Of a DNA stretch of 34,141 nucleotides, positions 26,701-29,700 are shown piece by piece. A program made the position numbers. Source of the stretch: Deltaproteobacteria bacterium (GTDB taxonomy: Bacteria > Myxococcota_A > Polyangia > Polyangiales > Houyiibacteriaceae); contig JAXMNT010000069.1 in assembly GCA_034670305.1 (NCBI GenBank), positions 1 through 34,141 on the forward strand, in the 5' to 3' direction. How positions within the stretch are numbered: position 1 is the stretch's first letter; each line of letters begins with the position of its first letter.

Positions 26701-29700
26701 CCACCGCCACAGCAGCAGCCACAGCACCAGCACCAGCCACAGCACCAGCGTCAGCCACAGCACCAGCGTCAGCCCCAGCACCAGCGTCAGCCAAAGCACC
26801 AGCGTCAGCCAAAGCACCAGCGTCAGCCACAGCACTTGCACCAACATCGGCCCCAGCCCCAGCAGCTCCAGCCGCGGCCTCGGCCCGGTTTGGGATCTGC
26901 AGCGCGCGGAGGTGGGCGGCGAGGGCCTCGCAGCCTTCGGGGTTGTGGGCGGCGTCGAGCAGGTACTCCTGGCCTTCGATCACGAGGCGCTCGAGGCGGG
27001 CGGGCCACGTGGCCTGCGCGAGGCCTTCTTCGATCGCCCGCTCCGGTACGTCGAGTCCGGACGCTCGGGTTCGGTGCAGCGCGGCGACGGCGACGGCTGC
27101 GTTGTGCGCTTGGTGGGCGCCGGCCAGTCCGAGTGGGTACGCGCGTTCGGTCTCTCCGATGCGGATGTGTGCGCGCCCGCAACCGTCTTCGAGCGCTTCG
27201 TAGCGCGTGTCGAATGCGTCGCCGATCTCCCACAAGTCGCAGTCGCGCTCCTCTGCGATCGATCCCACCACCGCCCGTGGCCCCGGCGCGCGGACGCCGC
27301 TCACTGCGGGGCGACCCTGCTCGAAGATGCCGGCCTTCTCGGCGGCGATGAGCTCTTCGGTGTCGCCGAGGATGCCGGGGTGTTCGAGCGTGATGCCGGT
27401 GACGACGCTGACGATCCGGCCCGAGACGGTGTTGGTCGCATCCAGCCGTCCGCCGAGCCCGACTTCGAGCACCACCACATCGCACGCGTGGTCTCGAAAA
27501 CTCTCGAATGCGAGCAGCACCGAGATCTCGAAGAACGTCAGCGGCGGCATCGCGTCGGACTCGTCGCGAATCGAAGTCAGGCGCGTCGCGATCTCCTCGT
27601 CGCCGATCGGTTCGCCGTCGATCCGGAACCGCTCGGCGTAGCGGTGAAGATGCGGCGAGGTGAAGAGCCCGGTTCGATGACCCGCGGCGCGGAGCGCGCG
27701 TTCGATCATCGCACAGGTACTGCCTTTGCCGTTGCTGCCGGTCACGTGCACGACGCGCAGATCCCGCTCTGGATGGCCCCGGTGTTCGAGGCCGCCCACC
27801 ATGCGGTCGAGTTCGTAGCGCACGCCCCGCGCGCTCAGCCCATACACCCACTCGAGCGCGTCGAGGTAGTTCATCCGACCACGACCGCCAGGTGGCGACC
27901 GGTGGTGCCGTCGTCTCGGCGGTAGGAGAAGAAGTCGTCCGCGTCGTCGTAGGTGCACCCGCCGACGTCGTCGATCTGGGTCACACCGATCGTGGCAAGT
28001 TGCGCCGAGACGATCGCGGCCAGGTCGACGTGCGGTTTCGGTCGGCTTCGGTCGATGGCGGCGGCGCCATACGACACCGCCTCCAGCCGCGTCGCGACTT
28101 CTTCGCCGACTTCGAAGCGCGGCATCCGAATGTGCGGCCCGATCGCCACCAGCAGCTCCTCGGCGCCGCGCCCACCGAGGATCGTGACCGCCGCCCGGCC
28201 GGCGATGCCGGCTTCCACCCCGCGCCAACCCGCGTGCACCGCGGCCACCCGCGACGTGCCCTTCACGGCCATCAGGATCGGCACGCAATCGGCCACCCGG
28301 ATCCCCACCGCGACCCCGGCTTCGACCGCAAACACGCCGTCCGCTTCTTCCTGGCGGACCACCTCGGGCGCTTGCCCGCGCCGAACCTGGCGGAGCATGG
28401 CCCCGTGCACCTGGGACACTTCGAAGAGCCCTTCGTAGCCGATGGCTGCGGCCAGCCGCCGATGGTTCTCTTCGACACGGTCGGCCACATCGCCGAGCCC
28501 GCGGCCGAGGTTGGCGCTCGCAAACGCGCCTTCGCTGACCCCACCGGTCCGGAGCGAGAACCCATGGCGAAACCCGTGAGCGGTCAGGAGGCTGGACTGT
28601 CGTATCTGCAACCGGTTGCCTCAGAGGTGGAGAGACGTCTGTCGGGCCGAACGGCCATCGCGCCCGCGGAATACGCCATCCCGCCCCAAAAACAAACCGC
28701 GCCCCGGCCGCCTCGTCGCCTTTGGACCATGGGTGACTTCGCTTCGCGCAAAGTGCTGTGCACTTTGACGGTCTTCGGCGCTTGACAGCGCTCTCGACCG
28801 TTTGTTGTCCGAGGGGGATGGGCGCATCCCCCTCCGGCCTGCGGGGCACAGCCCCTCCGGCCTCCTCCCCAACTTCGCTTCGCGCAAAGTGCTGTGCACT
28901 TTGACGGTCTTCGGCGCTTGACAGCGCTCTCGACCGGGTTAAAAAGCCGGTCCCTGACACCTGCGGATGTGGCGGAATTGGCAGACGCGCTGGATTAAGG
29001 ATCCAGTGGGGTAAAACCCGTGGAGGTTCGACTCCTCTCGTCCGCACCAGATGTACCCAGGGTTGAAAAGGGAGCGCACCAGCGCTCCCTTTTCTCATTT
29101 CTCGGCGAAGCCGACCCTTGCCCCTGCCCTTGCCCCTGCCCTTGCCCCTGGTTTGAAGCCGGGCATCGCCTCAACTTCCCGTCGAAGTTCGACGGCGGTG
29201 TACTAGTCTCTCCCCCATGTCGGTGTTCCTCGACGCGCTCCACCGCCGTCCCACCTCCCACACCCCGATCTGGCTCATGCGGCAGGCCGGGCGGTACCAG
29301 GCCTCCTACCAAGCGATCCGCAGCAAGGTGGAGTTCCTCGAGCTCTGCAAGACGCCGGAGCTCGCCTGCCAGGTGACCTTCGACGCGGTCGATCAACTCG
29401 GGGTGGACGCAGCGATCATCTTCGCGGACATCCTGTTGATCCTCGAGCCGCTCGGCATCCCCTTCTCGTTCGAGAAGGGACACGGCCCGAAGATCCACAC
29501 GCCCATCCGAACCGCGGCGCAGGTCGACGCGATGCCGAACTCGATCGACGTGGAGTCGCTCGGCTACGTGATGGAAGCGATCAAGCTCGCGCGCCGCGCC
29601 ATCGATGTGCCGCTCATCGGGTTCGCTGGCGCGCCGTTCACGCTCGCGAGCTACGCGATCGAAGGGGCCGGTTCGAAGAACTACTTCGCGACCAAGAAGA

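Follow-up and report, generated by a model that had tools for sequence, protein, structure and literature searches.

Conserved tRNA-Leu(AAG) gene of a G+C-rich lineage of the Polyangiales as a probable inosine-dependent reader of CUC codons

Leucine tRNAs with A34 in described systems

The decoding of leucine codons through an edited A34 has so far been described mainly in lactic acid bacteria. According to the main text of PMC13249217, with which the account given in the initial annotation agrees, bacterial tRNA-Leu(A34) genes are found almost entirely in Bacilli, with further cases in Mycoplasma and Prochlorococcus. The closest described system is the TadA-edited tRNA-Leu(IAG) of Lactobacillales (Streptococcus pyogenes, S. 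mutans and, as cited there, Oenococcus oeni), to which the tRNA analysed here, encoded in a window of 34,141 nt (contig JAXMNT010000069.1), is similar in several respects: (i) a leucine tRNA with A34 replaces the one with G34, apart from the array-type Leu(GAG) carried by the present genome and by the relative G022; (ii) a single TadA is encoded; (iii) the anticodon loop matches YUAMGRA; (iv) at the family level, Leu(AAG) and Leu(GAG) exclude each other (features of Lactobacillales as given in PMC13249217 and PMC11472039). The motif YUAMGRA is the measured editing consensus of the S. pyogenes TadA, an enzyme that accepts Leu(AAG) (PMC11472039). There are also clear differences between the two systems. 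The present genome has a G+C content of 68%, whereas those of Lactobacillales are AT-rich; the tRNA serves the dominant CUC codon here, whereas CUU and CUC were gained at the expense of UUA there; the reading of CUA by inosine, described as unnecessary in Lactobacillales (PMC13249217), would be needed in some relatives of the present genome; the TadA found here has 152 residues and no C-terminal extension; and the tRNA is edited in Lactobacillales, while inosine is proposed here.

The bacterial tRNA-Arg(ICG) also resembles the investigated tRNA, in that tRNAs with I34 (proposed for leucine) and C34 serve one four-codon box and the deaminase is presumably shared; the two differ in the amino acid, the tRNA class and the distribution, as Leu(AAG) is restricted to certain clades and Arg(ICG) is nearly universal. 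In Mycoplasma, a threonine tRNA with A34 reads its four-codon box by loose wobble; such unmodified A34 tRNAs belong to small, AT-rich genomes in which U-ending codons dominate, whereas a C-ending codon dominates here. What the present tRNA has in common with this tRNA-Thr(AGU), listed among the tRNAs with unmodified A34 (bioRxiv 10.64898/2026.05.15.725136), is that a tRNA with A34 serves a four-codon box. In eukaryotes, the tRNA-Leu(IAG) produced by ADAT2/ADAT3 carries I34 for CUU, CUC and CUA, and a G34 isoacceptor is lacking, as it is outside the array here. However, ADAT2/ADAT3 is a heterodimer that makes few demands on sequence but depends on the complete tRNA (PMC11472039), in contrast to the one TadA-type gene and the loop mimicking an arginine substrate in the present genome.

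The tRNA-Leu(AAG) gene and the leucine tRNA set

The following elements have been identified at the locus:

27871..28608, minus strand, pgeF (peptidoglycan editing factor), neighbour of the tRNA gene; TIGR00726, 147 bits (cut-off 141.15)
28918..28945, plus strand, possible promoter; exact TTGACA (28918-28923), 16 nt, TAAAAA (28940-28945); 17 nt upstream of the tRNA
28963..29049, plus strand, tRNA-Leu with anticodon AAG; ARAGORN, RF00005 and leucine covariance model R1
28995..29001, plus strand, anticodon loop UUAAGGA (tRNA positions 32-38), read from the sequence
29065..29094, plus strand, terminator-like hairpin of 13 pairs, including 8 G-C pairs, with a T-rich tail behind it; 16 nt 3' of the tRNA

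The segment 28963-29049 is a genuine, canonical and conserved tRNA-Leu gene. It matches RF00005 with 52.8 bits (E 9e-09; gathering score 29) over 71 of 71 model positions, and R1, a leucine-specific covariance model made for this analysis, with 98.2 bits. Both the RF00005 score and the loop UUAAGGA reported in the initial annotation were reproduced, and ARAGORN agrees; its drawing displays the leucine class II features, namely a long variable arm with a 4-bp variable stem and A73 in front of an encoded CCA. The anticodon occupies 28997-28999, with A34 at 28997. As its shape is that of class II and position 73 is an A, the tRNA is expected to be charged by LeuRS. The gene would be transcribed alone, as its own unit. 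The TTGACA/TAAAAA pair is a possible promoter, on which the consensus scan made no call upstream of the tRNA, since its rule demands a T at the end of the second hexamer. The terminator-like hairpin is the 1 found by the consensus scan against a mean of 0.6 in shuffled sequences, which is weak when taken alone.

Through analysis of the whole genome, 66 matches to RF00005 and 89 ARAGORN calls were obtained. The leucine tRNAs UAA, CAA, CAG and AAG are located on separate contigs (C11, C43, C30 and C69, respectively), and an array of 24 ARAGORN tRNA calls on contig C89 contributes Leu CAA, GAG and UAG. Outside this array, Leu(AAG) is the sole possible reader of CUC and CUU according to ARAGORN, RF00005 and R1, the last run with filters off and E up to 1. 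A 95-nt "Leu(gag)" called by ARAGORN at C28:6434-6528 is a false positive, supported neither by RF00005 nor by R1. The earlier claim that neither Leu(GAG) nor Leu(UAG) exists outside the array thus holds for GAG; for UAG it is doubtful and the absence may reflect an assembly gap, as in a relative with an identical Leu(AAG), G019, a Leu(UAG) without counterpart in this assembly lies 43 nt from the end of its contig.

The codon in question is the major one. In 3,106 long high-GC3 ORFs called in this analysis, CUC accounts for 81,378 of 153,030 leucine codons (53.2%, close to the 53.6% counted before) and CUU for 5.5%. It is improbable that the Leu(GAG) of the array is the main CUC reader in this genome, leaving Leu(AAG) minor or redundant. 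The scores of the array tRNA are good (51 bits with RF00005, 81.5 bits with R1), and a related array is present in the closed chromosome of a relative, G022. Against this, array-type Leu(GAG) occurs in just 2 of 88 family genomes, whereas Leu(AAG) is kept throughout and CUC is dominant in the relatives also; in addition, 9 of the 24 ARAGORN calls of the array are under the Rfam threshold, and the array looks like an accessory element because it includes an HNH endonuclease ORF and its tRNAs differ in backbone. In this genome, the array Leu(GAG) and Leu(UAG) may share the work.

Conservation within the family and the order

BLAST matches to tRNA-Leu(AAG) are present in 86 of 88 family genomes, which extends the family-wide close matches noted before, and of 30 family loci inspected, 29 have the anticodon AAG (28 of 30 in the earlier count). 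A search pattern with AAG was found in 93 of the 401 genomes of the order: in the family it matches 70 of 88 (69 of 87 relatives and the present genome), representing all 18 genera, and outside it 23 of 313 genomes from 10 of 23 other families. With GAG in place of AAG, the pattern has no match among 87 genomes of the family, and its matches in the order are restricted to families f17 (19/191) and f12 (1/1). The two patterns are mutually exclusive at the family level within the order, and tRNA-Leu(AAG) is vertically inherited. A pgeF homologue adjoins Leu(AAG) in 19 of 35 loci of relatives, including two other families, and was found beside Leu(GAG) in none of six loci (up to 1.5 kb per side in both cases).

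A census of leucine tRNAs was prepared for five relatives with R1, scoring the best 150 first-look candidates per genome. Leucine tRNAs reached at least 67 bits and all other candidates at most 55 bits:

G067 (100% complete): AAG, CAG, UAG, UAA, CAA
G015 (100% complete): AAG, CAG, UAG, UAA, CAA
G071: AAG, CAG, UAG, CAA
G022 (closed genome): AAG, CAG, two UAA, CAA; in the array GAG, CAG, CAA
G086: AAG, CAG, UAA, CAA

Among these candidates, a chromosomal Leu(GAG) was found in none of the five relatives, and Leu(UAG) was not found in G022 and G086. Leu(UAG) was likewise not found in G085, a further relative. The census bears on the concern, raised in the initial annotation, that a chromosomal Leu(GAG) sits in a gap of the 96%-complete assembly. 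A tRNA can indeed be hidden in this way, as the Leu(UAG) of G019 may illustrate; nevertheless, a gap is a very unlikely explanation, given that no chromosomal Leu(GAG) was found among the candidates scored in the five relatives, including one closed and two 100%-complete genomes, or by the GAG pattern search of the family. Census, pattern counts and tRNA searches agree with the earlier view of the gene, and support Leu(AAG) as the conserved chromosomal reader of CUC and CUU.

The sequences of the relatives also bear on the integrity of the gene, which is under selection. In 15 copies from six families, 10 of 25 predicted stem pairs have compensatory changes and none is broken, while the loop part AAGGA is invariant among the copies compared. 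A degenerate copy, changed at U8 and U33 and not called by ARAGORN, is present in G026 (74% complete), which would fit a gene that is decaying or unexpressed. For the gene studied here such a fate is scarcely credible, considering the compensated stems, the invariant AAGGA and the conserved pgeF flank.

Anticodon loop, TadA and the proposed decoding by inosine

Two further genes of the genome are relevant to the decoding:

C37:50562-50638, tRNA-Arg(ACG)
C37:50706-51161, tadA, ORF of 152 aa, 68 nt after tRNA-Arg(ACG); NF008113 and PF14437

The TadA-type deaminase gene previously noticed beside tRNA-Arg(ACG) is confirmed by 167.5 bits with NF008113 (cut-off 150) and 134.4 bits with PF14437, and the protein retains the HAE and PCxxC motifs. 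The gene is single-copy; a second deaminase match, on contig C7, is RibD.

The loop of Leu(AAG) is UUAAGGA in this genome and CUAAGGA in most relatives, and both forms match YUAMGRA, the consensus of the S. pyogenes TadA. The loop of tRNA-Arg(ACG) in this genome, CUACGGA, differs from it only at positions 32 and 35, the former difference being a feature of the form found in this genome. The Leu(GAG) loops of outgroups are UUGAGGU and UUGAGGG (one locus each) and that of the Leu(CAG) paralogue is UUCAGGU, so that A38 occurs only in the AAG form among the leucine loops compared, as well as in tRNA-Arg(ACG). The loop of Leu(AAG) has converged on that of a TadA substrate.

Our preferred reading, to which we assign a probability of about 0.75, is that the standalone gene encodes a standard tRNA for CUC, CUU and probably CUA, charged by LeuRS and converted from A34 to inosine by TadA, the deamination being inferred. 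The single TadA, which would also edit tRNA-Arg(ACG), would act on A34 of tRNA-Leu(AAG), and the resulting tRNA-Leu(IAG) would share the CUN box with tRNA-Leu(CAG), as ICG and CCG share the arginine CGN box. Inosine is proposed as the best explanation because the loop fits both YUAMGRA and the arginine loop, one TadA is encoded, the gene is conserved and there is no chromosomal G34 alternative. The 87-nt tRNA was matched in 20 sequencing runs, of which six are recorded as RNA, all as assembled contigs with fewer than five sampled words each. The RNA-library contigs carry A at 28997 in a comparison of three metatranscriptome runs and one DNA run, with no alternative letters listed; contigs drop variants, however, and libraries of such community samples may hold DNA or precursors. 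One RNA-library contig of 1,635 nt has zero differences. These contigs argue neither for nor against editing of the mature tRNA.

It is unlikely that A34 is left unmodified, with CUU read well and CUC, and perhaps all CUN codons, read by loose wobble. Such tRNAs are known in a few bacteria (bioRxiv 10.64898/2026.05.15.725136), and the E. coli TadA is reported to refuse the S. pyogenes tRNA-Leu(AAG) in vitro (PMC11472039); an adapted enzyme may therefore be required. When 11 TadA sequences of the AAG clade were aligned with four of the GAG clade, eight columns and a one-residue gap separated the groups, which are also separate lineages, and no interpretable signature of adaptation was found. 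On the other hand, 53% of leucine codons would depend on a poor A:C pair. An orthogonal tRNA with AAG and unmodified A34 read CUU far better than CUC (reassignment of 4.3% against 1.5%), and its reading of CUA and CUG was below the level of detection (PMC11066159). Moreover, the convergence of the loop would lack an explanation if there were no editing.

Decoding by inosine might reach further. Since Leu(UAG) was not found in G085, G086 and the closed G022, the CUN box in part of the clade may consist of IAG and CAG only, like that of arginine, and inosine would have to read CUA too. Tentatively, and at slightly less than even chances, this two-tRNA box is combined with the view that the loop YUAAGGA in many phyla reflects repeated, independent capture by TadA. 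Were it so, one TadA would underlie the decoding of well over half of leucine and most arginine codons in a bacterium of 68% G+C, and the near-invariant loop would mark TadA taking over leucine decoding in unrelated phyla by mimicry of the arginine tRNA loop.

A scan for Leu(AAG) across bacteria, with one genome per species, gave at least 120 matches. Besides Bacilli and Prochlorococcus, those listed include Verrucomicrobiota, Clostridia, Planctomycetota, Actinomarina, Acidimicrobiia, Alphaproteobacteria, Synergistaceae and others; the investigated lineage is therefore one of many, and its novelty as an extension far from Bacilli had been overstated. Among the matches listed, 113 of 119 Leu(AAG) tRNAs, from many phyla, have the YUAAGGA loop with A38, a residue not imposed by the pattern. 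In their concluding remarks, Katanski et al. ask whether leucine decoding by inosine reaches beyond Lactobacillales. At the gene level the answer is yes, as a large clade, and many other lineages too, have swapped Leu(GAG) for Leu(AAG). Since the I:C pair would serve the dominant codon here, the clade contrasts usefully with the AT-rich lactic acid bacteria, and it is suited to asking how TadA broadens its substrate range, whether the enzyme turns into a stronger point of vulnerability, and whether the A34 tRNA drives or follows codon use. For annotation, codon-adaptation measures in such genomes should score AAG as IAG.

Concerning codon use, ORFs of the loci give CUC shares of 49.5, 40.9 and 45.2% for three AAG groups, compared with 40.4% for the GAG families; the corresponding CUG shares are 26.9-32.7% and 39.7%. 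All come from small samples of 431-1,860 leucine codons. As CUC already amounts to about 40% in the Leu(GAG) families in these small samples, the CUC preference need not result from the A34 tRNA.

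Leucine tRNA genes and codon use

The only tRNA that ARAGORN calls in the window is a tRNA-Leu(AAG) whose variable arm is long and which has A73 and a CCA encoded in the gene. It matches the Rfam tRNA model RF00005 over its full length (52.8 bits, E 9e-09); apart from this gene, the window gave no Rfam match at the gathering score. The following features surround it:

28918-28923: exact TTGACA upstream of the gene, seen in the sequence
28963-29049, + strand: tRNA-Leu(aag), ARAGORN
28995-29001, + strand: anticodon loop UUAAGGA, read from the sequence, with A34 at 28997
29065-29094: terminator-like hairpin of 13 pairs followed by a T-rich tail, 3' of the gene
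31691-33115: ovoA-type 5-histidylcysteine sulfoxide synthase (TIGR04344, 429.5 bits, cut-off 400), downstream of hemE and a HemY-type oxidase gene

A consensus scan called no promoter upstream of the tRNA gene. Its neighbours are housekeeping genes, namely pgeF (upstream, opposite strand), hemE, the HemY-type oxidase gene and, downstream, ovoA, and nothing among them suggests a mobile element. A short run of alternating CCCTTG and CCCCTG units lies between the terminator hairpin and hemE (29110-29150).

The source genome (7.93 Mb, 105 contigs, 68.1% G+C) gave 66 RF00005 matches and 89 ARAGORN tRNA calls. Its leucine tRNAs, and those found in a census of five relatives with our own leucine covariance model (leucine tRNAs at 67 bits or more, everything else at 55 or less, among the best 150 first-look candidates scored per genome), are as follows:

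Leucine tRNA anticodons in the source genome and five relatives
Source genome, ordinary contigs: UAA (C11), CAA (C43), CAG (C30), AAG (C69, the contig of the window)
Source genome, tRNA array on contig C89: CAA, GAG, UAG
G067 (100% complete): AAG, CAG, UAG, UAA, CAA
G015 (100% complete): AAG, CAG, UAG, UAA, CAA
G071 (98% complete): AAG, CAG, UAG, CAA
G022 (closed genome): AAG, CAG, two UAA, CAA; its array adds GAG, CAG, CAA
G086 (97% complete): AAG, CAG, UAA, CAA

A 95-nt "Leu(gag)" called by ARAGORN on contig C28 was rejected as a false positive, having no match to RF00005 or to the leucine model (filters off, E up to 1). With this call removed, tRNA-Leu(AAG) is the one tRNA outside the array that could read CUC and CUU, as the initial annotation had proposed; that observation is confirmed and strengthened. 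In the census none of the five relatives had a chromosomal Leu(GAG) among the candidates scored. About ten ARAGORN calls of 85-99 nt in this 68% G+C genome (Pro, Arg, Lys, Val, Leu, Ser) have no RF00005 match and are likely false positives whose long variable arms are invented.

That CUC is the commonest leucine codon was also confirmed. The counts come from 3,106 ORFs of our own calling, each of at least 300 codons and chosen for the highest third-position G+C.

Leucine codons in the source genome (n=153,030)
CUC: 53.2%
CUG: 29.6%
UUG: 11.2%
CUU: 5.5%
CUA: 0.5%
UUA: 0.07%

Searches for a Leu(UAG) orthologue gave none outside the array in the source genome and none in G022, G085 and G086. The relative G019, whose tRNA-Leu(AAG) is identical, has a Leu(UAG) 43 nt from a contig end, so a chromosomal Leu(UAG) of the source genome may be hidden in an assembly gap. 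In some relatives the CUN box would apparently depend fully on CAG and an inosine-containing IAG anticodon.

The array as a possible second source of CUC readers

The other possible reader of CUC is the Leu(GAG) of the array, which may contribute to decoding in the source genome. The array looks like an accessory element: a match to its type of Leu(GAG) occurs in two of the 88 family genomes, the source genome and G022, and the backbone of its tRNAs is a different one. It lies on a 16.9-kb contig, with this layout (positions of locus L002):

8079-9344: ORF of a chorismate-binding enzyme, upstream of the array
10166-16297: tRNA array, 24 ARAGORN calls, of which 15 exceed an Rfam gathering score
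13768-14454: HNH endonuclease ORF inside the array

Besides Leu(GAG), the array carries an Arg(GCG) that ARAGORN alone calls. The chromosome encodes both of these tRNAs with A34 and the array encodes them with G34, so the array would be independent of TadA. Its last tRNA (16204-16294) scores 48.2 bits with the selenocysteine tRNA model, borderline at a gathering score of 47, and is Ser(cga) for ARAGORN; a serine tRNA is its most likely identity. A related array is located at about 3.451-3.462 Mb in G022. Clustered Lys(UUU), Lys(CUU), Trp and Gln(UUG) tRNAs on the 5.7-kb contig C102 (143-2605 of locus L006) could be one more fragment of a tRNA array.

Conservation, descent and spread of tRNA-Leu(AAG)

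The gene is kept in the family, as noted initially: BLAST matches were found in 86/88 genomes, and of the 30 best loci 29 are read as Leu(aag) by ARAGORN, while the remaining one, in a genome 74% complete, holds a degenerate copy. A sequence pattern (D arm plus YUAAGR loop, position 38 lying outside it) occurs in the source genome and 69/87 other family genomes, covering all 18 genera. Elsewhere in the order it was found in 23/313 genomes (10/23 other families), with none in the largest family, f17 (0/191). The GAG version of the pattern, whose counts must be read as those of a clearly insensitive search, matched none of the 87 family genomes and, in the order, only f17 (19/191) and f12 (1/1). 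In a phylum sample of genomes at least 90% complete, 29/161 carry the AAG pattern, including 14/17 in a single family from another class.

The cloverleaf is retained in fifteen copies drawn from six families: both sides have changed in 10 of 25 predicted pairs, none is broken and AAGGA is invariant; pgeF adjoins the gene in 19/35 relatives' loci, including two other families. These are signs of selection and vertical descent. Since the anticodon stem and variable arm are common to Leu(AAG) and the Leu(GAG) of outgroup families, the gene probably arose by a G34-to-A34 change in an orthologous Leu(GAG) gene.

Bacterial Leu(AAG) genes in GtRNAdb are described by Katanski et al. (PMC13249217) as almost all from Bacilli, plus Mycoplasma and Prochlorococcus, and a 2026 preprint (bioRxiv 10.64898/2026.05.15.725136) ranks Leu(AAG) and Thr(AGU) first in frequency among A34 tRNAs other than ACG, with most in Firmicutes. 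With one genome per species, the pattern matched at least 120 stretches, and ARAGORN read Leu(aag) in 119 of the 120 listed. By record titles, the matches listed include Streptococcus, lactobacilli and Prochlorococcus; many Clostridia; Akkermansia and other Verrucomicrobiota; Pirellulaceae and other Planctomycetota; Actinomarina, Acidimicrobiia and Collinsella; Micavibrio and other Alphaproteobacteria; Synergistaceae, Cloacimonadota, Sumerlaeia and Caldisericaceae. The family is thus one of many lineages with this tRNA; what is distinctive in it is the high-G+C setting and, in some relatives, the apparent reliance of the whole CUN box on IAG and CAG. In a full-text search on inosine and wobble tRNAs in Myxococc*, none of the five papers listed, of six matched, is on this subject, judged by titles and abstract openings.

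Codon use in relatives was taken from the ORFs of fetched loci.

CUC and CUG in relatives (small samples, related groups)
AAG group 1: CUC 49.5%, CUG 26.9%
AAG group 2: CUC 40.9%, CUG 31.8%
AAG group 3: CUC 45.2%, CUG 32.7%
Leu(GAG) families: CUC 40.4%, CUG 39.7%

In equally small and related samples, CUA makes up 4.5% in the group keeping Leu(UAG) versus 1.7% in the group where the searched members, G022, G085 and G086, gave none; G019, which has a Leu(UAG), belongs to the latter group too. Given such samples, the contrast between groups is a lead, not a result.

TadA and the A34 anticodon loop

The TadA-type deaminase gene reported beside tRNA-Arg(ACG) on contig C37 was recovered 68 nt after that tRNA (TadA equivalog, 167.5 bits, cut-off 150). 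It is the only copy in the genome, the one other tblastn match being RibD, and exactly one TadA match was found in 14 of 15 relatives searched. Positions 32-38 of the relevant tRNAs compare as follows:

tRNA-Arg(ACG), source genome: CUACGGA
tRNA-Leu(AAG), source genome: UUAAGGA
tRNA-Leu(AAG), most relatives: CUAAGGA
Leu(CAG) paralogue: UUCAGGU
Outgroup Leu(GAG): UUGAGGU or UUGAGGG

Among the leucine tRNAs compared, the arginine-type loop including A38 occurs in the A34 form only. In Leu(AAG) genes of many unrelated phyla the loop is nearly uniform: YUAAGGA is present in 113 of the 119 listed (loops of all 119: CUAAGGA 100, UUAAGGA 13, UUAAGGG 5, UUAAGGU 1), position 38 being free in the pattern. 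Wulff et al. (PMC11472039) report that S. pyogenes TadA edits tRNA-Leu(AAG) with the consensus YUAMGRA, and that the E. coli enzyme leaves this S. pyogenes tRNA unedited. Both UUAAGGA and CUAAGGA fit the consensus, which is that of the S. pyogenes enzyme.

Alternatively, A34 could stay unmodified. In PMC11066159, an AAG anticodon whose A34 was largely unmodified is reported to read CUU better than CUC, with CUA and CUG below detection; a tRNA of this kind is thus a poor candidate for serving 53% of leucine codons. Inosine made by TadA at A34 is the best reading and well supported by inference.

The gene run on C37 (positions 4330-5697 of the locus) comprises Ser(GCU), Arg(ACG), tadA, Ser(CGA), Ser(GGA) and the small SRP RNA, tadA directly following its own substrate gene. 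TadA, Arg(ACG) and Ser tRNAs share this neighbourhood in G086, and in G022 TadA is flanked by tRNA matches, known from positions alone, at distances matching those of the source genome. ARAGORN also calls a tRNA-His with anticodon AUG, hence A34, on contig C5 (123582-123654; 1084-1154 of locus L004), between Met and Lys tRNAs (loop UUAUGGA, RF00005 39.4 bits). Its acceptor stem has two mismatches, and the gene could be either one more A34 tRNA or a copy in decay.
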